This document shows, one piece after another, positions 4,662 through 49,865 of a stretch of DNA of 51,413 bases (position 1 is the stretch's first letter; each line of letters opens with the position of its first letter). Source of the DNA: Candidatus Udaeobacter sp. (GTDB lineage: Bacteria; Verrucomicrobiota; Verrucomicrobiia; Chthoniobacterales; UBA10450); contig JBARMF010000042.1 of NCBI GenBank assembly GCA_049802315.1, positions 1 through 51,413 on the forward strand, in the 5' to 3' direction. Both the position numbers and the translations under genes were made by a program. The notes beneath the pieces are model-generated. The model saw nothing but the letters and a program-made list of their open reading frames with translations. It searched no databases and had not been told where the DNA came from.

Positions 4662-5444
4662 TTAACTCCAGCTACTCTCGCTTCGAATCCATGCGCTGGA
4701 CTGGTCGCGGCGAATTGAAATCATTGCGCGGGCGCGCCGGGCGAGCTTTTCGGTGTCGATCTTTTTAAAATCGCGCTGTGCGGCTCCTATTTCAGGCAGG
4801 GAGAGGTTCAGGTTTCGGAGAATTCGTGTGTCGGACGGTATTGCCTCGTTAGGCTTGTGGCCGCTTAATACCCGCTTTTGAAATTCTGAAACTACCCTCG
4901 CTACCGACGTGTCATTAGCCACTCCGAAGAAATTGGCGAGCTTTTGGAAACTGAGATGAAACGGAATGGTCGCCAAATCTACATCAGCAAACCCAACGCT
5001 TCCTTGCGGCGGCATTTCAATCTCACTCGACATCGCGACAGAATGCCAAGTGTCGAATACCTGAAAATAGCCGATCTCCACACGGTACGAGTTGTGCAAA
5101 CCGGATATCGTTACGTAGTGCATTCCGCTCATCGGTTCGACGGCAACTCTGGTTTCTACGCCGCCCTCCCCGTCTATCACCTGAAGATGCACTTCTCGAT
5201 GCGCCGGCATAGCCTTTTCAAAGACAAATCGCCAATCAATATTCCAACTGACGAAGATTGTGCGGGGGTCACGTGCGATGGCGAAGAGAAATGGCTGCCC
5301 ACACATACTTGTCGGCGCGATGCGATCATCGACGTCAGGCTGTGATGGATGTCCGGCCAGATGCACCATTGGACCCTGGCGGATTTGGAAGCCGCCGTTT
5401 GCAGGTAATCTTCCCGCGTTGCGTTTTGTTTTTCCTTTGACCAT
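4662..5444 (-). CDS. DUF4912-like hypothetical protein
   Basis: The track ORF is 4662-5657. I chose the internal ATG at 5444 (MVKGKTKRN...), which avoids overlap with the divergent gene at 5519. The segment FAIARDPRTIFVSWNIDW resembles the DUF4912 motif (RDPxxxxxxW). Confidence 0.5.
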   Translation of the reverse strand: MVKGKTKRNAGRLPANGGFQIRQGPMVHLAGHPSQPDVDDRIAPTSMCGQPFLFAIARDPRTIFVSWNIDWRFVFEKAMPAHREVHLQVIDGEGGVETRVAVEPMSGMHYVTISGLHNSYRVEIGYFQVFDTWHSVAMSSEIEMPPQGSVGFADVDLATIPFHLSFQKLANFFGVANDTSVARVVSEFQKRVLSGHKPNEAIPSDTRILRNLNLSLPEIGAAQRDFKKIDTEKLARRARAMISIRRDQSSAWIRSESSWS

Positions 5445-5518
5445 TCTTGCAAGAACGTGCGCAAACCAGTTAAAGGCCAACTGCGATTGACGCGCAATAT
5501 GAAAATCAGGGAGAAGGA

Positions 5519-6004
5519 ATGAGTTCAAAAATCGTCGAGCTTGAGGAGCTTCCCGATCGGTGCGAGAAGCTGCGGTCGGCCGGGAAGAAGATTGTAGCCA
5601 CAAACGGATGTTTTGATCTGTTGCACGTTGGGCATGTGCGGTATTTGCAGGCGGCACGAGCGCTGGGCGATCTTCTGGTTGTTGGCTTGAACGGTGACTG
5701 TTCAGTCCTTGAGTTAAAAGGAACAGGGCGCCCGATCACAACCCAACGCGATCGCGCGGAGATCCTCGCGGCATTGGAATGCGTAGATTTGGTCACGGTT
5801 TTTCCCGAACTCAGGGCCACAAAGTTTCTCGCGGCGGTTCGCCCTGCCGTTTATGTCAAAGGCGGCGATTACACCCCGCGGACGCTAGACGAAGAAGAGG
5901 TTGTAATATTAAAGGAAATTGAAGCGGCGATTCGGATCATCCCATTTGAAGCAGGGTATTCAACTTCCGGATTGATCGAGCAGATTTGTAAGGGCAGGAG
6001 TTAA
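5519..6004 (+). CDS. cytidylyl/adenylyltransferase-family protein, RfaE domain II-like (D-beta-D-heptose 1-phosphate adenylyltransferase type)
   Basis: 161 aa. NGCFDLLHVGHVRYL carries the (T/H)xGH nucleotidyltransferase motif. GGAGAAGG lies upstream of the ATG. Confidence 0.8.
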   Translation: MSSKIVELEELPDRCEKLRSAGKKIVATNGCFDLLHVGHVRYLQAARALGDLLVVGLNGDCSVLELKGTGRPITTQRDRAEILAALECVDLVTVFPELRATKFLAAVRPAVYVKGGDYTPRTLDEEEVVILKEIEAAIRIIPFEAGYSTSGLIEQICKGRS

Positions 6005-6019
6005 AAAAACCGATTTAGA

Positions 6020-6622
6020 ATGAAAAGCCTTCCAATTGGAGTTCTCGGGTCGGGGAAGGGCAGTAACTGCCGCGTGATCCTCGAGCGCATCCGGTCGGGC
6101 GATCTCCCTGCGGAAGCGCGCCTGGTCGTCTCGGATGTGCTGGATGCACCGATCCTTGATATCGCGCGCAAATTTGGTGTGGCAAATGCGTATTTGCCGC
6201 CGGGCAGATTTCGTACGCGATTGGAGCCGGCAATAGAAGAGCAGCTCGTGAAAATGTTGCGCGATGCCGGTGTCGAACTTGTCATTCTCGCCGGTTTCAT
6301 GCGTGTCTTGCATGAACCAACGCTCAAAGCGTTCCCCCGTCGCATTATCAACATTCATCCATCGCTTCTGCCTAAATTCCCAGGACTTGAATCATGGAAA
6401 CAAGCTTTCGTCGCAGGCGAAACTGTGACCGGTTGCACGGTGCATTACGTCGACGAACGAATCGATCACGGGCGAATACTGGCACAGAAAGAGGTAAAGA
6501 TTTTGCCTAACGACACGGCGGAGAGCCTGCATGCTCGGATTCAAGTCCTGGAGCACGAACTATACCCGGCCGTTATCGCCGAATTCTGCAAAAGATATAA
6601 TGAAGCAAGCCAGCAAATTTGA
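6020..6622 (+). CDS. purN: phosphoribosylglycinamide formyltransferase
   Basis: 200 aa. Contains GSGKGSN, VILAGFMRVL and the INIHPSLLPKFPGL motif of PurN. Confidence 0.9.
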   Translation: MKSLPIGVLGSGKGSNCRVILERIRSGDLPAEARLVVSDVLDAPILDIARKFGVANAYLPPGRFRTRLEPAIEEQLVKMLRDAGVELVILAGFMRVLHEPTLKAFPRRIINIHPSLLPKFPGLESWKQAFVAGETVTGCTVHYVDERIDHGRILAQKEVKILPNDTAESLHARIQVLEHELYPAVIAEFCKRYNEASQQI

Positions 6623-8294: not shown

Positions 8295-10184
8295 CTATCT
8301 TAACTCTCGAATATCGGAGTGTATATTATGTAATGTATTCCGATTCAACCAAATGTGTAAAATAGAGATATCGGATGGAGTGATTCCGCTGATGCGTGCC
8401 GCTTGTCCCAATGAGGGGGGGCGCAAACGTGATAGCTTCTGTCTGGTTTCCGACCTCAACCCGGCAATTTTATCGTAGTTGAGGCCATCTGGAATCTTCT
8501 GATTTCGTTTGTGGTCGATCCGTTGATTCTGCTCCGACTGGCGGGCTGCGTATCCTTCGTATCTCAAGTCTGTTTGAAGAAGTTCCCAAATCGAAAGCGG
8601 GAGGCTTGATAGTATGTCACCCGGCAACAATGTTACATCAAAATCGGGCTGCTTGAGAAGCCGAGAAATCGCACTTCCGTTTAACTTAGTTCGGATAGCT
8701 AGCGCGCGCGCCTGCTCTAGCAGGTGCATTTTCTGTTTGAAACTGTGAAATCTTGCTTCACTGACAAGGCCGGTATCAAAGGCCCTACCGGTAAGGCGCT
8801 GATCGGCATTGTCGTGTCGCAAACACAACCGATCTTCAGCACGGCTCGTAAACATGCGATACGGTTCTTCTGTCCCTTTAGTGACGAGATCATCAATCAG
8901 AACGCCGATGTACGCTTCGCTCCTGCTTAAGACTAAAGGCGAACGATCTTTGATTTTTAAAGCTGCATTAGTTCCCGCAATCAAGCCTTGTGCTGCGGCT
9001 TCTTCGTAACCCGAAGTGCCATTAACTTGGCCGGCTAAGTAGAGCCCGCTGACAATCTTCGTTTCAAGTGTCGGTAGCAGTTGCGTTGGCGGAAAATAAT
9101 CATATTCCACCGCGTAGCCAGGCCGCATAATTTCTGCTTCCTCCAAGCCCGGGATCGAATGCAAAAAATCGACCTGAACTTCATATGGCAGACTGGTGGA
9201 GATTCCATTGACGTAGTACTCGTTGGTGTGCCGCCCTTCTGGTTCAAGGAACAACTGATGTGAGGGTTTATCTGTGAATTTGACGACCTTATCTTCAATC
9301 GAAGGACAATATCGCGGACCAACCCCATTAATTCGCCCGGCGTACAAGGGTGACCTGTGTAAATTCGCTCGAATAATGTCATGCGTCCTTTGGGTGGTGT
9401 GGGTAATCCAGCAAGGCAATTGTTCCACGTGGAACTGTCCGTTACGAACAGGGTTCAGAGTGAAAATCTCACCGAAGCCGGTGCCGATCTCTTCACAATT
9501 GAAGGCGAAGCCGCATGGCGGTTCATCGCCGAGCTGAATCGAGCATCGTGTGAAATCAATCGATCGCGCATTTAGGCGACAGGGCGTCCCTGTTTTGAAT
9601 CGCCCCACCTGGAGTCCCATCTCCTGTAAGCTGGCGCTGAGGTTTGAACTCGCGTCCGCCATCCGTCCGCCAGGCTTACTGCTTTCGCCGATGTGCAAGA
9701 GCCCTCGTAAGAATGTCCCAGAGGTGATTACGACAGACCGAGCGGCAATAGTTACACCCATGTCAGTCTCGACGCCAATCACGGCTCCGGCATCGCGAAT
9801 AACGCGTGATACAGTTCCCTGTTTAATGTCGAGATTCTGCGCTTCTTCCAAAATGGCTTTCATTCGAAACTGGTACGCCTTCTTGTCACATTGAACTCGG
9901 GGGGCACGTACCGACGGGCCCTTTCTTCGGTTCAGCATTCGAAAGTGAATTCCGGTTGCATCAGCGTTAAGCCCCATCGCTCCTCCCATGGCGTCGATTT
10001 CGCGAACAATATGCCCTTTTGCCAGTCCGCCGATGGCAGGGTTGCACGACATCTGCCCAATAGTATCCAAATTCTGGGTCAACATCAGTGTGCGGCAGCC
10101 GATGCGGGCGGCCGCCAGTGCCGCCTCGATTCCAGCGTGTCCGCTCCCTACTACTACTACGTCGTAACTATCTAAGGTAAACAT
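8295..10184 (-). CDS. mnmG: tRNA uridine-5-carboxymethylaminomethyl synthesis enzyme MnmG (GidA)
   Basis: 629 aa. [19 protein letters not shown] motif, with the highly conserved [12 protein letters not shown] and [16 protein letters not shown]. Confidence 0.97.
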
Positions 10185-22789: not shown

Positions 22790-24019
22790 TCACTGAGACC
22801 AGATTTGCTCACCGCAACGGTACGTTCGCACCACTTCCAATTCCGGCGACAGCACAATCAAATCGGCGTCCGCTCCGACGATAAGCCGACCTTTCGTTTC
22901 GAGACCGATAGCGCGCGCCGGATTTTCCGTAGCCATTGCGATCGCTTCATTCAACGGAACGTTCACCTCGCGCACCATTATACGGACAAGGTTGATCATG
23001 CGCGCGGCGCTGCCCGCGAGCGCTGAACGATCAGCTAGCAGGCAGACTCCGTTTTCCACGATGCAGTCCTTGCCGAAGAGCGCGAACTGCGATCCGTCCG
23101 GCACTCCCGCGCCTGCGGTCGCGTCAGTCACCAGACAAATTCCCTGTGCGCCTTTCGCGCGATACAACATTTTCATCAGCGTGGGCGAAACGTGATGACC
23201 GTCGGCAATCAGTTCACAACTGATGTCTGGTTCGCTCAATGCAAACTCAAGCAAACCAGCAACCCGATAAATGCCGCGACGGCGCGCGGTCGACATGCAG
23301 TTAAATATGTGTGTCACGCTTCGCATACCGTGATCGAATGCTGCCTGGACGTCTTCGTCCCAGGCATCGCTATGTCCGCCGCTGACGCTGATCTTATGAG
23401 CATGGAAGACTTCGATCGCTTCAAGAGCTCCAGGCAGTTCAGGCGCGATCGTCACACGCTTGAGCACATCCGCATGCTCGAGCAACTGCCGCACACCAGC
23501 TGGTGACGGGTCCTGAATAAACTCGGCGCGTTGCGCTCCGGCTTTCGCTTTCGAAATGAAGGGCCCTTCGACATGAACACCGACGATGGTAGGGACAGCG
23601 CGCTGCGCTGTCCGGACGCCGCAGCGCGGCGTCCCTACCCCGGACCGCTGCTCCGTCGAATTACGCACCGCTTCCAATACATCGACGATTCTATCCAGAG
23701 GCGCCGTAGCCGTCGTGAGCAGAAGCGATGTCGTGCCGCCACTCGCGTGGAAATCGCAAATAGAGCGAAACGCTTCAGCCGAGGCTTCCATTGTGTCGCG
23801 GCCAAGCGCGCCGTGCACATGAAGATCGATAAAACCGGGCGCGAGATAATTTCCATTGAGATCAATGACCTCATGTTCCCCGTGCGCCAGGGATCGCTCT
23901 CGGATCGCAGCGATTTTTCCTTGTTGCACGACAACTTCAAGCCCATCGCGAATTCCATCGGGAAAAATCAAACGCGCGTTCGTGAAGATCATCTCGTATG
24001 CCATCAATCCTGCCTGCAC
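22790..24019 (-). CDS. nagA: N-acetylglucosamine-6-phosphate deacetylase
   Basis: 409 aa. PGFIDLHVHGA metal-binding motif, then GVHVEGPFIS, THIFNCM and the amidohydrolase C-terminal part. It carries an in-frame palindromic insert (next feature). Confidence 0.9.
   Translation of the reverse strand: MQAGLMAYEMIFTNARLIFPDGIRDGLEVVVQQGKIAAIRERSLAHGEHEVIDLNGNYLAPGFIDLHVHGALGRDTMEASAEAFRSICDFHASGGTTSLLLTTATAPLDRIVDVLEAVRNSTEQRSGVGTPRCGVRTAQRAVPTIVGVHVEGPFISKAKAGAQRAEFIQDPSPAGVRQLLEHADVLKRVTIAPELPGALEAIEVFHAHKISVSGGHSDAWDEDVQAAFDHGMRSVTHIFNCMSTARRRGIYRVAGLLEFALSEPDISCELIADGHHVSPTLMKMLYRAKGAQGICLVTDATAGAGVPDGSQFALFGKDCIVENGVCLLADRSALAGSAARMINLVRIMVREVNVPLNEAIAMATENPARAIGLETKGRLIVGADADLIVLSPELEVVRTYRCGEQIWSQ
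23588..23639. repeat. clamped double-hairpin palindromic element (ggtaggg...ccctacc family) inside the nagA coding sequence
   Basis: ggtagggac-agcgcgctgcgct-gtccggacgccgcagcgcggcgtccctacc has a 9-nt outer inverted repeat and two inner stem-loops (7 bp and 9 bp). It is translated in the nagA frame as GVGTPRCGVRTAQRAVPT. Confidence 0.8.
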
Positions 24020-24067: not shown

Positions 24068-24478
24068 AGAACGCAAGGTTTTTACGATAGTCGCATCTTC
24101 AAATTTCCAGAGGGACCGACACTGGGGCAACGATTGCAAGCGCACATTCTGAACAACCCCGTCGACCGCGAAATCTTCGGCGCAGCAAAAGTGATCGAAG
24201 GCGACGTGCACGCGCTTTCAATGCTGCCGTATCACAGCGAAAAAGTTTGCGACGACGGTTGGGCGATGGTGGGCGATGCCGCCGGATTCATCGATCCACT
24301 TTACAGTCCCGGTGTCGATTTTTGTTCTTACACTTCCTATTACGTGTGCGCGTTTCTGAGCCTGCCGTTCCCTGGGAAAGGGGGTAGATTTGCCCGCAAG
24401 TTGATGAATTTTTACAATCGCAGGTTTGTGACTCTCGCAAATCGCCGATGGGTGACCGGCTCCTCCGCGCTCTCATAA
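24068..24478 (+). pseudogene. remnant of an FAD-dependent oxidoreductase / halogenase-like gene; N-terminal about two thirds missing, C-terminus degraded
   Basis: Only the last about 135 codons of track ORF 23531-24478 lie outside nagA. They read ...DDGWAMVGDAAGFIDPLYSPGVDF..., the GDAAxFxDPxxSxG motif of FAD-dependent halogenase/geranylgeranyl-reductase-like enzymes. There is no start codon, and no Rossmann GxGxxG part is present. Confidence 0.6.
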
Positions 24479-27130: not shown

Positions 27131-27240
27131 GTTGCGCTGTCTTCAGCGGCAAACTGGTAGGGGCGGTTCACCTGAACCGCCTGTGGCGATTGAGGTCAAT
27201 CGCCGCTACCTCACAAGAAGTCCGCTGGGGACAGCGGACG
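27131..27240. repeat. composite nested palindromic element (outer hairpin pair with an inserted ggtagg...ctacc double-hairpin core at 27156-27210)
   Basis: Hairpins are ggcggttca-cc-tgaaccgcc, ggcgattga-gg-tcaatcgcc and gtccgctg-ggga-cagcggac. The flanks align with the 46494-46563 element, which lacks the core. Confidence 0.7.
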
Positions 27241-27776: not shown

Positions 27777-29612
27777 ATGAAAACGGTCTGGCGCGTATTT
27801 GCGTATCTAAAGCGATATCCCTGGTTGGCCGCGGGGACGCTCACGTGCGCGATCTTCGGCACCTTGATGGTGATTGTGTTTCCGAGTGTGACCAAATGGA
27901 TCATTGAGGACGTGGTGCGGGCGAATCGGCCGGACAAATTGCTGCCGCTGATTTTGCTGGCCGCGGTCGCTTTTATTGTTCAGCACCTTTTCAATTCGCT
28001 CCGAATCGTTCTGAACAACACATTCGAGCAGAAAGTCATTTTTGATCTGCGCAGCGACTTGTATTCGCACATTCAACTCCTTCCGTTGCGCTGGTTTGAT
28101 AATCGGGCGACGGGCGACCTGATGACGCGCGTGATCGAAGACGTGAACTCGGTCGAGCGCGTGTTGATCGACGGAATCGAGCAAGGCGTCGTCGCGGTTT
28201 TACAAATCGTGATCGTAATGGCGGTGATGTTTTATTGGAACGCAAAGCTCGCATTGCTTGCGCTGGTGCCGCTGCCGCTGCTGATCGCGGGCGCGCTCGC
28301 TTACACGCTAACGGCGCACCGGCGGTATCGATTACAGCGGCGCGCTGCGTCGAATATCAACGCGCTGTTGCACGACAATCTTGCCGGTGTTCGTCAGATC
28401 AAAAGCTTCGCGCGCGAACGCGAGGAACACGCGCGTTTCAATCGCGCCAGCGATCAACTGCGGCATGCCACGCTGGTGGTGATGCGGACATGGGCGATTT
28501 ACTCGCCATCGATGTCGATGTTCGAAGCAATCGGCGCGTTGCTCGTGCTGGGATTTGGTAGTCACGACGTTTTGACCGGCAGCCTGCAACTCGGAGATCT
28601 GGTCGGAATCCTGATGCTCATGGCATTTCTTTACGATCCCATCAGCCGGTTGCATCAGTTGAATCAATTGGTGCAGGCCGGCCGTGCAGCGGGCGAACGT
28701 GTGTTTGAGATTCTCGACGAAGACGCCGAGCCGGGAGTTGTAGCCGTGGTCGGTGACCCTGGGACCGCGGCCGACGGCCGCGGCTACAGTGGACGCGTCA
28801 TCGGCGACATTCGCTACGACGATGTGAGCTTCAGTTACGTCGACGGGTTATCTGCGCTTCGGCACATTTCTTTTCACGCACCACCGGGCACCACGACTGC
28901 GCTCGTCGGCGCGACTGGCGCGGGAAAATCGACGCTGGTGAATTTGCTCGTGCGCTTTTACGAGTTCGACTCGGGCCAGATTTATGTCGATGACAAACCC
29001 GTTCGAGAGTACGACCTGCGCACTTTACGCGAAGGCGTCGGAGTCGTGACGCAGGAAAGCTTCCTTTTCAACGGATCGATTCGCGAAAATCTTTTGATGG
29101 GCAAACCAACGGCCAGTGACGCGGAACTATGGCGCGCGGTGGATGCCGCGAATGCGCGACAATTCATCGAGCGTTTGCCACAAGGATTGGAGAGCGTGGT
29201 TGGCGAGCGCGGCGTGAAATTGAGCGTGGGCGAGAAACAGCGGCTCTCAATTGCACGGGCGCTGCTCAAGGATCCGCCCATTTTGATTCTCGATGAAGCA
29301 ACAGCCAGCGTGGACACGGCGACAGAACGCTTAATCCAAGAGGCGCTGGAACATTTGATGGCGAATCGGACGTCGATTGTGATTGCACACCGCCTTTCGA
29401 CAATCGTCGGTGCGGACCAGATCCTGGTGTTGGATCACGGCCGCATCGTCGAGCGCGGCACCCACGCCGAATTGCTGGTGCTCGATCAAAAATACGCGCA
29501 GTTATGCCGTCAGAGTCTGTTAGAATCGTCGCCTCAGCGCGAAGCAGAGTCTGACGAGGAAATTGTCACCTCAGAAGTTGCGGAACCGGAAGAACAACGA
29601 TTGTCGGTCTAA
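27777..29612 (+). CDS. ABC exporter, fused permease/ATPase (MsbA/ABCB-like)
   Basis: 611 aa with six N-terminal TM helices. Walker A is GATGAGKST, the signature is LSVGEKQR, and Walker B is ILILDEATS. It carries an in-frame palindromic insert in the TMD-NBD linker. Confidence 0.9.
   Translation: MKTVWRVFAYLKRYPWLAAGTLTCAIFGTLMVIVFPSVTKWIIEDVVRANRPDKLLPLILLAAVAFIVQHLFNSLRIVLNNTFEQKVIFDLRSDLYSHIQLLPLRWFDNRATGDLMTRVIEDVNSVERVLIDGIEQGVVAVLQIVIVMAVMFYWNAKLALLALVPLPLLIAGALAYTLTAHRRYRLQRRAASNINALLHDNLAGVRQIKSFAREREEHARFNRASDQLRHATLVVMRTWAIYSPSMSMFEAIGALLVLGFGSHDVLTGSLQLGDLVGILMLMAFLYDPISRLHQLNQLVQAGRAAGERVFEILDEDAEPGVVAVVGDPGTAADGRGYSGRVIGDIRYDDVSFSYVDGLSALRHISFHAPPGTTTALVGATGAGKSTLVNLLVRFYEFDSGQIYVDDKPVREYDLRTLREGVGVVTQESFLFNGSIRENLLMGKPTASDAELWRAVDAANARQFIERLPQGLESVVGERGVKLSVGEKQRLSIARALLKDPPILILDEATASVDTATERLIQEALEHLMANRTSIVIAHRLSTIVGADQILVLDHGRIVERGTHAELLVLDQKYAQLCRQSLLESSPQREAESDEEIVTSEVAEPEEQRLSV
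28739..28788. repeat. palindromic element (tgtagccg...cggctaca family) inside the ABC exporter coding sequence
   Basis: An 8-bp outer inverted repeat (tgtagccg / cggctaca) encloses the 9-bp palindrome ccgcggccg-a-cggccgcgg. It is translated as VVAVVGDPGTAADGRGYS. The same outer clamp occurs at 49784-49865. Confidence 0.75.
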
Positions 29613-45035: not shown

Positions 45036-45182
45036 GAATAACTGCTTCTGCCGCGGTGATGGCGATCAGTGATAACTTTTGCCCTCTTCCAAGACGAGAA
45101 AAATTTCGGCCACAGTGTTTCTGCAATTGAACGGGGCATCGACGCTGCGTAGGTGTTTAGCGTTACGGTGCAACGGCCCCAT

Positions 45183-45351
45183 CAGGCCAAGGGCCTGAAC
45201 CATTTTAACCGAGGGCGGCGCCCTCGGAAACGTGTCCAACAAATGGGATCCGCCCTGAAGGGGCAAATCCGACGAAGTCAGCGCCAAAAATTGGATTTCC
45301 CTTACAGGCCGAATCTTATTCGAACATTCGAACCGAGGGCGTTGCCCTCGG
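45183..45351. repeat. cluster of GC-rich hairpins including two copies of aaccgagggcgNNgccctcgg
   Basis: Copies at 45207-45227 and 45331-45351 each have an 8-9 bp stem. Additional hairpins are caggcc-aag-ggcctg and aaatcc...ggattt. The cluster sits in the 480-nt gap upstream of the ATPase. Confidence 0.65.
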
Positions 45352-45516
45352 CTAAAATCGCCACCGCCTTTCAGGCGAGTTCAACTCAGAAGAGCTGTGC
45401 AGAAGCGCAGTCTAGAAAGCCTAAATAGGCACCATGATGCCGACCGGCTTGGCTGGCTGAATCTCATCCGCGAAGGGAAATAGACACCGCCACTGACCGC
45501 CTCTCGCGCGAACGAA

Positions 45517-45756
45517 TTGTGTATGCCCAGATGCGAAGTCTGTGGGAATGATTATGACAAGGCGTTTGAAATCGTCATGGACGGACAGCGCCACATCTTT
45601 GATAGCTTCGAGTGCGCAATCCACGCCCTCGCGCCTGTTTGCCCGCATTGCAATTGCCGTATCATGGGCCACGGCGTCGAAGCCGACGGACAAATCTTCT
45701 GTTGTGTCCACTGCGCACGCGCGTCTGGCAAAACGCAGTTGAAGGATCGCGCTTGA
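45517..45756 (+). CDS. small Cys-rich putative metal-binding protein
   Basis: 79 aa with 10 Cys arranged CxxxCxxC...C...CxxCxC...CCxxC. I recall close homologues annotated only as hypothetical or metallothionein-like. Adjacent to sodC. Confidence 0.55.
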   Translation: MCMPRCEVCGNDYDKAFEIVMDGQRHIFDSFECAIHALAPVCPHCNCRIMGHGVEADGQIFCCVHCARASGKTQLKDRA

Positions 45757-45827
45757 GGTGGGGCGCGTCACTCCGTGCGCGCCGTTTTACCTTCATGACC
45801 GGCGTGCAGAGGACTGCACGCCCTACC
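45757..45827. repeat. clamped double-hairpin element (ggtgggg...ccctacc), third member of the family seen in nagA
   Basis: It starts right after the stop codon. Hairpin 1 is ggcgcg-tcactccgtg-cgcgcc, followed by gtttt, so it may double as a terminator. Hairpin 2 is ggcgtgcag-agga-ctgcacgcc, a perfect 9-bp stem. The closing clamp is ctacc. Confidence 0.65.
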
Positions 45828-45920
45828 TGGCGTTTAACTTCCACCTTTGGTGTTATGGCGTGGTCATTGGAATATTGATGCGACTGGACGTGAAGACTCG
45901 TGCGAAATACAAATGATAAC

Positions 45921-48671: not shown

Positions 48672-49763
48672 ATGGTTTCACTCAACCGAGATGCGCTCAC
48701 AGAAAAAATCCTGGAGGGCGCGCGGATTTCCACAGACGACGCGCTGGAATTGTATCGGTCGCCGCTGGAAGAATTGGCGGCGCTTGCGAATGCGCGGCGC
48801 GACATGGCAAAGGCGAAAAGCTACGAAGGCCGCGGCCGCGAGATCGTGACCTACATCGTCGATCGCAACATCAATTACACGAACGTGTGCAACGTTTACT
48901 GCAAGTTCTGCGCGTTTTATCGGACCGAACGCGACGAAGATCATTATGTGCTGACCTTAGGGCAGTTTGATCAAAAGCTGGATGAACTCACCGCTGCAGG
49001 CGGCGTGCAAATCCTGATGCAGGGCGGGCATCATCCGAAATTGTCGTTCCAATGGTACATCGATCTCTTGCACCACATCCGCGAAAAATATCCGCACATC
49101 AATATTCACGGATTCAGTCCGCCGGAGTTTCAACATTTCGCGGAGACATTCCAGATGCCGCTGCGAGAAGTGATCTCGGCATTTAAGACCGCTGGCCTCG
49201 GGTCGATCCCGGGTGGCGGCGGTGAAATCCTTGTGGACCGGGTGCGGAAGAGAATTTCGCCTTTGAAAATTAACAGTGACGAATGGCTGGAGGTGATGCA
49301 GGTGGCGCACGAGCTCGGATTAAAATCGAGTGCTACGATGATGTTCGGCCACGTGGAAACGATCGAAGATCGCGTCGAGCATCTGAAACGGATTCGCGAT
49401 CAACAGGATCGCAGCGGCGGATTCACAGCGTTCATTTGCTGGACCTTTCAACCGCAGCATACCGTGTTGAAAGTGAAGCAGCCCACTGGCGTGTCCGAGT
49501 ATCTGCGAATGCAAGCGCTCGCACGGATTTTCCTGGACAACATCGATAACATCCAAAGCTCTTGGGTCACGCAGGGCCCGGACATCGGCCAGATCGCGCT
49601 GAGATACGGCGCAAACGATTTCGGCTCGGTGATGATGGAAGAAAATGTGGTCAGCAGCGCCGGCACAGCCTTTCGGCTCGATGCAGCGGAAATCGAGTCG
49701 CTCATTCGTGGCGCAGGATACGAGCCACACCGGCGAGATAATTGGTACGAACTGTTGAACTGA
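48672..49763 (+). CDS. radical SAM enzyme of the futalosine menaquinone pathway (MqnC-like; an MqnE assignment is not excluded)
   Basis: 363 aa. VDRNINYTNVCNVYCKFCAF carries the CxxxCxxC cluster. ILMQGGHHPKL and FTAFICWTFQPQHT resemble cyclic dehypoxanthinyl futalosine synthase more than aminofutalosine synthase, as far as I recall. Confidence 0.75.
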   Translation: MVSLNRDALTEKILEGARISTDDALELYRSPLEELAALANARRDMAKAKSYEGRGREIVTYIVDRNINYTNVCNVYCKFCAFYRTERDEDHYVLTLGQFDQKLDELTAAGGVQILMQGGHHPKLSFQWYIDLLHHIREKYPHINIHGFSPPEFQHFAETFQMPLREVISAFKTAGLGSIPGGGGEILVDRVRKRISPLKINSDEWLEVMQVAHELGLKSSATMMFGHVETIEDRVEHLKRIRDQQDRSGGFTAFICWTFQPQHTVLKVKQPTGVSEYLRMQALARIFLDNIDNIQSSWVTQGPDIGQIALRYGANDFGSVMMEENVVSSAGTAFRLDAAEIESLIRGAGYEPHRRDNWYELLN

Positions 49764-49783: not shown

Positions 49784-49865
49784 CTGTAGCCGCGTCTCTG
49801 TAAGACGCGATAGCCGTCCTGGTTTACCTGCCACGATTACGCCTCGCACAGCGAGGCGGCTACAG
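49784..49865. repeat. clamped palindromic element (ctgtagccgc...gcggctacag)
   Basis: A 10-bp outer inverted repeat encloses two inner hairpins: gcgtct-ctgta-agacgc and cgcctcgc-aca-gcgaggcg. It has the same clamp as the element inside the ABC exporter gene. Confidence 0.7.

Follow-up and report, generated by a model that had tools for sequence, protein, structure and literature searches.

How a palindromic DNA element comes to lie in frame within a bacterial gene, and what becomes of the encoded enzyme, are the questions raised by nagA (N-acetylglucosamine-6-phosphate deacetylase) in a 51,413-nt contig of Candidatus Udaeobacter sp. (JBARMF010000042.1, analysed over its whole length and called here the window). 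A preliminary description of this DNA pointed to a 52-nt clamped double hairpin within the gene, likened it to the in-frame Rickettsia palindromic elements (RPEs) and left two outcomes for nagA, either tolerance of an extra loop or inactivation without a stop codon. Our analysis supports the interpretation of the element as an RPE-like, in-frame mobile palindrome and refines it to a transposase-linked dimer. In all likelihood, the 52-mer is a non-autonomous mobile heterodimer of GTAG-tagged repetitive extragenic palindromic (REP) sequences, mobilised by a REP-associated tyrosine transposase (RAYT) and tolerated in NagA as an in-frame loop.

Anatomy of the nagA element

The element reads ggtagggacagcgcgctgcgctgtccggacgccgcagcgcggcgtccctacc (52 nt, as first described) and consists, in this order, of a GGTAG clamp, hairpin 1, hairpin 2 and a CTACC clamp (Table 1). 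However, the 9-nt outer inverted repeat initially assigned to it did not hold, because its last 4 nt (GGAC/GTCC) are shared with the hairpin stems; the clamp is thus 5 bp long. As single-stranded DNA, either strand folds in such a way that the GGTAG/CTACC clamp closes two 9-bp hairpins with 3-nt loops. In this lowest-energy fold, the two hairpins stand apart at a three-way junction; its energy (-26.7 kcal/mol, z = -5.1) was equalled by none of 200 shuffled sequences. Both arms carry GTAG directly 5' of a short GC-rich stem-loop (GTAG-GGAC..GTCC, 9-bp stem, 3-nt loop). They differ from each other by two compensatory stem pairs, and the stem variant of arm B is the most frequent one in the family described below. 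The 9-mer GGTAGGGAC has two matches in the whole window, one per strand and both at the ends of the element, for 0.11 matches expected by chance (two or more matches were found in 1 of 100 shuffles). In its tag, stem-loops and inverted arrangement, the nagA element corresponds to a GTAG-tagged REP dimer. A scan of positions 23300-23900 against Rfam gave no family match, two matches lying far under the gathering scores. Moreover, no direct (target-site) duplication was found in the flanks of the nagA copy or of six zero-spacer copies from other loci. The element was also considered as a miniature inverted-repeat transposable element and rejected as such, since merely the 5-9-nt clamp could serve as terminal repeat and there is no target-site duplication.

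The NagA frame reads through the element

The open reading frame (ORF) at 22790-24019 (minus strand) was identified as NagA by its match to the E. coli protein 1YMY (E = 6e-48), and it crosses the element without a break, as the preliminary description had stated (...EQRSGVGTPRCGVRTAQRAVPTIVGVHVEGPF..., also given as ...SGVGTPRCGVRTAQRAVPTIVGVHVEGPF). The translated insert is VGTPRCGVRTAQRAVPT, and a peptide that spans it is, for example, AVPTIVGVHVEGPFISK. The frame used, GTA-GGG-..., contains no stop codon on either strand, and the +1 frame has TAG on both. In alignment with insert-free orthologues, the net addition amounts to 51 nt and hence 17 aa (window 23588-23638, residues V119-T135) rather than the loop of about 18 aa first proposed.

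The insert ends 6 residues before the metal-binding Glu (Glu142) of the HxEGP motif, and the adjacency to the catalytic motif noted earlier is real in sequence but not in the predicted fold. In alignment to solved NagA structures, the insert comes after the helix downstream of strand beta2 and before strand beta3. An AlphaFold2 model built from a shallow alignment (A1; mean pLDDT 50), from which secondary structure alone was taken, agrees with a helix at 99-114, a coil at 115-135 and a strand at 136-145. The placement relative to the faces of the barrel is based on the sequence alignment to the solved structures and on general TIM-barrel topology. Since the catalytic residues of (beta/alpha)8 amidohydrolases lie at the C-terminal ends of the strands, the loop is predicted to enter beta3 at its N-terminal end, on the face opposite to the catalytic Glu142.

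Insert-bearing and empty alleles coexist

Most NagA orthologues are 383 aa long, lack the insert and read ...AVRDFRSAISPIVGVHVEGPF at this site; the nearest proteins come from soil metagenomes, and one source labels them Candidatus Udaeobacter. The segment is also missing from the NagA structures of E. coli and B. subtilis. The 17 extra aa are present in the window protein and in P0003-9, P0012 and P0013; besides the window protein, about ten 90%-identity clusters carry them in all, some of which hold 14-24 member sequences, and the same insert was recovered in independent ENA and JGI assemblies. However, the closest relative of the window, a 48-kb ENA contig (L001) that is syntenic with it and 97.5% identical over 21 kb, is without insert. 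The majority of insert-free orthologues and the empty site in L001 support the proposal that the segment was inserted.

We surveyed 74 parsed nagA loci, comprising 72 of 80 JGI metagenome loci, the window and L001. The empty allele was found in 51 of them. Another 18 loci carry an allele with 7 or 8 extra aa (..TQRRARRSRPT..), and three have 15 or 16 extra aa, into which additional sequence is nested, while the full 17-aa doublet is carried by the window, L120, L121 and L140. Every insert form ends with CCCTACC or a degenerate version of it, beside the I-V/A-G-V-H codons, and the 7-aa allele (..QRRARRSRPT..) ends in CGCGCCCTACC. This short allele may be a decayed REP, but because it folds no better than shuffled sequence (z = -0.5 to -0.9), we do not claim it as one.

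In a neighbour-joining tree of nagA computed with the insert site masked, the members of an allele class lie scattered. L001 (empty) is the sister of the window (doublet) and L141 (empty) that of L120 (doublet), and L121 (doublet) is near-identical to L127 (7-aa form), from which it differs by 2 nt outside a patch of ~150 nt. Likewise, the differences between the nagA genes of the window and L001 fall mostly within a patch of ~115 nt (codons about 99-137), the genes being near-identical elsewhere. The polymorphisms that flank the insert inside these patches match other carriers of the same allele class: the window shares DRIVDVL with P0003, P0004 and P0011, and the patch of L127 matches that of L158. 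These patterns are most simply read as the transfer of old alleles between backbones by homologous recombination over short patches.

Some further length variation was noted in and near the gene. The nagA allele of P0011, seen as protein alone, reads VGT--------QR--AVPT at the insert, a form consistent with collapse of the doublet to a single hairpin through an internal deletion between the GGAC repeats. A second short insertion is present near residue 35 (columns 78-90 of alignment A1) in the Udaeobacter nagA alleles P0003, P0004, P0013 and P0028; it reads ..PTPKLRRTGE.., or ..RSEYGGQAST.. in P0028, and resembles translated palindromic DNA. Finally, L001 has an insertion of ~205 nt (9388-9592), absent at window 24454-24461, in the spacer between nagA and a prepilin-peptidase gene; it is not a simple hairpin doublet.

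A REP family dispersed in Verrucomicrobiota

A scan for the pattern GTAGGGACNNCGCNNNGCGNNGTCC, with one genome per species, gave a family of at least 118 stretches, nearly all from Verrucomicrobiota (Chthoniobacterales, Verrucomicrobiae, 'Spartobacteria' and one Candidatus Udaeobacter metagenome-assembled genome, MAG). The family thus occurs well beyond nagA: there are at least 118 stretches in species-representative genomes and four diverged doublets elsewhere in the window, and the dispersal of the family over many genomes, genes and intergenic regions supports the mobile-element reading. The details given in the rest of this section refer to the matches listed. Other hosts are a few Lentisphaerae/Kiritimatiellia and scattered others, and a MAG can contribute several stretches, for example, four SMAG_U11933 contigs. 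The main stem variants are GCCGC, GGCGC, ATCGC and AGCGC, all with the loop GCT. Tail-to-tail doublets numbered 34; their spacers measure 0-122 nt, and six have none, like the nagA copy. None of these 34 doublets, in which both arms fit the pattern, combines two identical variants, against an expectation of 27% (P = 2.5e-5). In addition, composite forms of ~100-135 nt have GTAG arms at their ends and two conserved inner hairpins (gcgccgc..gcggcgc and ccgcccgc..gcgggcgg); they were found at loci L039, L050, L083, L097, L107, L109, L112 and L115.

Nine copies lie in frame within long ORFs whose Pfam domains span the insertion. The proteins concerned are LeuS (leuS; two MAGs, same site), HemA (hemA), IlvD (ilvD), MnmA (mnmA; two MAGs, L038 and L109, with the long composite form translated in frame), a CofH/MqnC-type radical-SAM enzyme, a 'Gate' nucleoside-recognition membrane protein and a Ser/Thr kinase, in which the copy follows the catalytic loop and precedes the DFG motif. 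The frame GTA-GGG-... is common to all nine and translates as V-G-(T/S)-x-R-C-x-(V/D)-R-T-x-Q-R-x-V-P-T.

A RAYT gene is flanked by doublets of the same family

RAYT candidates were taken from a scan of the fetched loci for the motif HxH...YxxNP. A 151-aa ORF in L061 (5509-5967) has a homologue, P0128, in L200 (3001-3456). Because the two proteins score 95-105 bits on NCBIfam NF047646 (REP_Tyr_transpos, cutoff 80), we assign the L061 protein to the REP-associated tyrosine transposases; the match of Pfam Y1_Tnp to it was too weak (19.8 bits, cutoff 23). Zero-spacer doublets of the nagA-element family are located on both sides of the RAYT gene in L061 and in L200, and in both loci the stop codon of the gene is the TAG within the GTAG of the 3' doublet. 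REP/RAYT systems are defined by just such a gene with flanking REPs. In the database, the protein family counts more than 1285 members, several of which JGI labels RayT or REP-associated tyrosine transposase, and one homologue (P0138, NCBI record) belongs to Candidatus Udaeobacter sp. Binding of single-stranded DNA hairpins and cleavage at GTAG have been shown for the E. coli RayT only (PMC3733652); by analogy with that enzyme, the present RAYT family probably also binds and cleaves at GTAG. A trial RayT (YafM) sequence had no Pfam family match and was discarded.

A related arrangement was seen in L084, where the recG ORF (950 aa, minus) has an in-frame insertion of ~240 aa (plus strand 5418-6212), with ...LRTAARQEES on one side and IIVGTHALL on the other. 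A Y1 transposase (RAYT-like) domain was recognised within it (Pfam PF01797, 31 bits, cutoff 23), and hairpins of a similar kind, AAGTTCGTCG(T/C)CGC..., mark its boundaries. The frame of the DNA-repair helicase RecG appears to run through an entire RAYT-like gene.

Proposed history of the insertion, selection on nagA and alternative explanations

These observations can be brought together in the following model. A RAYT of the HUH/Y1 type would mobilise the REP doublet in trans, recognising its hairpins in single-stranded DNA and cutting at GTAG. One doublet would have landed in nagA, in the TIM-barrel loop between helix alpha2 and strand beta3, and would now be translated into 17 residues, rich in Gly, Arg and Pro, that form a loop of a still functional enzyme. 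The insert may have persisted because its 51 nt are a multiple of three, because the GTA-GGG-... frame is free of stop codons on both strands and because the loop is situated at the N-terminal end of beta3, with the catalytic Glu at the C-terminal end. The Candidatus Udaeobacter population is polymorphic at this site, with empty, short remnant-like and doublet alleles that short-patch recombination would shift between backbones.

Several points weigh against this model. Neither the RAYT nor the evidence for many copies was obtained from the genome to which the window belongs; the sources are other MAGs and metagenome contigs. Within the 51 kb of the window, the exact GGTAGGGAC clamp is present in one copy, the other four doublets belonging to diverged subfamilies. 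The structure model is of low confidence. Furthermore, the 24 nt directly upstream of the insert differ from those of empty alleles by several indels and substitutions; a clean reconstruction as 'empty site + 51 nt' fails, and the insertion junction is not cleanly readable. Neither could one compensating frameshift 5' of the insert be demonstrated.

The fate of the enzyme was judged from selection. Outside the insert site, dN/dS is 0.17-0.24 for insert-bearing alleles (0.12-0.14 against the distant L140) and 0.19 for empty alleles, and the catalytic columns (HxH, HxEGP, His, His and Asp) are invariant in the NagA alignment. Because insert alleles are under the same purifying selection as empty ones, the data support tolerance of the extra loop by a NagA that stays functional, and the choice left by the preliminary description is resolved in this direction. 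One could still suspect a young pseudogene, inactivated by the insertion and so far free of stop codons, given that the metal-binding Glu lies so closely downstream and that the encoded peptide resembles translated repeat DNA. However, dN/dS values of 0.12-0.24, equal to those of empty alleles, the invariance of all catalytic columns, intact ORFs in insert alleles that are dS 0.3-1.2 apart and the occurrence of the insert in about ten distinct clusters make inactivation without a stop codon highly improbable, and on these sequence comparisons we reject it. Even less probable is the view that NagA had this loop natively from an ancestor and that most lineages have lost it, or that the segment is an artefact of assembly. 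The patchy distribution of alleles on the tree could, taken alone, reflect repeated loss, but the E. coli and B. subtilis structures are without the segment, copies of this 50-52-nt sequence lie in intergenic DNA, in genes unrelated to nagA and on both sides of a transposase gene, and the independent ENA and JGI assemblies agree on the insert.

An exaptation, in which the doublet in nagA is kept by selection at the nucleotide level and the allele classes form a balanced polymorphism, is unlikely. The window, L120 and L121 share the same 51 nt, although their synonymous difference elsewhere in the gene is 26-36%, and L140 differs by 1 nt at dS about 1.2, whereas 4 of the 24 positions directly upstream of the insert differ among these doublet alleles; in addition, the allele classes persist across deep branches of the nagA tree. 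Under this explanation, the DNA or RNA structure might modulate transcription, mRNA stability or translation of nagA or act as a RAYT-dependent switch. However, RAYT constrains the family consensus phylum-wide, so conservation is expected without any function in nagA, and the sequence would be made uniform by gene conversion or re-insertion from other copies, or by a recent recombinational spread of the patch. The presence of the element in unrelated genes and intergenic DNA also speaks against a nagA-specific role, and there is no Rfam family match. This surplus conservation is compatible with a copy that is homogenised with, or constrained by, the family across the genome, and does not in itself demonstrate a function in nagA. 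The stronger proposal that the nagA site is a balanced, RAYT-serviced polymorphism, its hairpin pair being an intragenic regulatory or recombination-initiating structure, is similarly doubtful. If it were true, new surface loops would arise repeatedly from in-frame REP doublets in essential enzymes of one of the most abundant soil bacteria. A mobile GTAG-REP heterodimer tolerated as a protein loop is the explanation that we retain.

Other REP doublets in the window

The window contains 9 GTAG-REP arms, compared with 0-2 in shuffled sequence, and GTAG is the tetramer found most often directly before a hairpin. Five doublets were recognised, beginning at 23588, 27156, 28741, 45757 and 49786 (Table 1); within each of them the arms are alike, apart from compensatory stem pairs. 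The first two intergenic doublets, to which the preliminary description had ascribed the architecture of the nagA element, do have the same GTAG-hairpin-hairpin-CTAC layout with different stems (fold z = -5.9 at 27156-27210 and -3.4 at 45757-45827). In the doublet at 28741, which is also present in L001, the second hairpin alone is intact. Its translation, VVAVVGDPGTAADGRGY, lies in the linker between the membrane and nucleotide-binding domains of an ATP-binding cassette (ABC) exporter, and this linker exceeds that of the nearest homologue (72% identical) by ~11 aa.

A different hairpin, AACCGAGGGCGnnGCCCTCGG, occurs twice (45207-45227 and 45331-45351, 124 nt apart) in a gene-poor stretch of ~850 nt (45036-45899). 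Transfer RNA genes were considered as the source of the hairpins near 45.2 kb, and no such gene was found there.

Table 1. Coordinates of nagA, of the inserted element and of related features in the window
Feature	Position	Strand	Description
nagA CDS (coding sequence)	22790..23992	-	N-acetylglucosamine-6-phosphate deacetylase; 400 aa from MIFTN, stop included
Diverged patch vs L001	23585..23698	.	~115 nt, codons about 99-137
Whole nagA element	23588..23639	.	GTAG-REP tail-to-tail heterodimer, zero spacer
REP arm A	23589..23613	+	GTAGGGAC-AGCGC-GCT-GCGCT-GTCC, 'AG' stem variant
REP arm B	23614..23638	-	GTAGGGAC-GCCGC-GCT-GCGGC-GTCC, 'GC' stem variant
Intergenic GTAG-REP doublet	27156..27210	.	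GGTAG-GGGCGGTTCA..TGAACCGCC-TGT-GGCGATTGA..TCAATCGCC-G-CTACC; arms differ by compensatory pairs
Degenerate GTAGCC-type doublet	28741..28787	+	within ABC exporter CDS (27825-29612, plus); translated
Intergenic GT(G/A)G-REP doublet	45757..45827	.	17-nt spacer
GTAGCC-type REP doublet	49786..49863	.	30-nt spacer; 23 nt downstream of the stop of ORF 48672-49763; compensatory arms

Significance and comparison with known systems

The case of nagA leaves the current understanding of REPs unchanged. It adds a well-documented example to the short list of bacterial mobile palindromes translated inside essential enzymes, in a host clade that is uncultured (Candidatus Udaeobacter and other Chthoniobacterales). 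The empty, short and doublet alleles on near-identical backbones constitute a ready natural series for the study of insert tolerance in TIM barrels and of REP/RAYT turnover. In the annotation of Verrucomicrobiota proteins, 17-mers rich in Arg, Gly and Pro that follow VGTxRCxVRTxQRxVPT should be read as translated REP DNA and not as enzyme sequence. None of the papers searched links Udaeobacter with REPs.

The RPEs (Ogata et al. 2000, as cited in PMC3733652) are like the nagA element in being in-frame palindromes that add short surface peptides to genes that stay functional; at nagA, this corresponds to an insertion of 51 nt with intact ORFs and a function deduced from selection. However, RPE-4 and RPE-6 are CGTC-tagged and have been equated with CGTC REPs, for which no transposase is known (PMC3733652, Table 1), and RPE-1 is much longer; the sequences are unrelated, and the RPE hosts are obligate intracellular Alphaproteobacteria, whereas the nagA element has a GTAG tag and a host from the Verrucomicrobiota. 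Membership of the RPE family was therefore rejected, the element being RPE-like in behaviour only.

With the REPIN-RAYT system of Pseudomonas (Bertels and Rainey 2011, PMC3116915) and the BIME/REP-RayT (TnpA-REP) system of E. coli (Nunvar 2010, PMC2817692), the nagA family has in common two inverted REPs, a GTAG tag, a Y1/HUH transposase gene flanked by REPs and, among the matches listed, many dispersed copies. In REPINs, however, the arms are separated by a spacer and pair into one long hairpin, and the elements are almost wholly extragenic. In the nagA family, the arms always differ by compensatory pairs and each of them folds alone. We rejected identity with REPINs on account of this lack of arm-to-arm pairing, the three-way-junction fold, the absence of homodimers (0/34 among the matches listed) and the zero spacer of the nagA copy.

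The closest known elements are those of the verrucomicrobium Opitutus terrae. Di Nocera, De Gregorio and Rocco (2013, BMC Genomics 14:522; PMC3733652) described the GTAG- and CGTC-tagged REP superfamilies, defined head-to-head and tail-to-tail dimers, the preference for heterodimers, intragenic REPs and REPtrons (RAYT genes flanked by REPs, O. terrae being among the hosts), and catalogued ~70 intragenic GTAG REPs in O. terrae. The RPE-like behaviour proposed for the nagA element thus stands, but the lineage is not new for such events. O. terrae GTAG-17, -18 and -19 resemble the nagA element in host phylum and in the GTAG tag followed by a GC-rich stem-loop; their dimers are inverted, with partners 0-2 bp apart and heterodimers preferred, they add 15-17 aa in frame to housekeeping genes and their RAYT genes are flanked by REPs. 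Moreover, the VVAVVGDPGTAADGRGY peptide in the ABC exporter (GTAGCC subfamily) resembles GTAG-17 peptides, e.g. VAGVADPGTGLSEAGY. The stem of the nagA family is unlike those of the O. terrae families (GTAGGGAC-N5-GCT-N5-GTCC, read VGTxRCxVRTxQRxVPT), and its hosts are different, namely Chthoniobacterales, Candidatus Udaeobacter and many uncultured Verrucomicrobiota. Neither nagA as an insertion target nor population allele series and recombination patches at such a site are described in the published account (PMC3733652). Intragenic GTAG REP dimers are already known in Verrucomicrobiota, and what is added here is a new, widespread sequence family, the allele series at nagA and a clear link to a RAYT.

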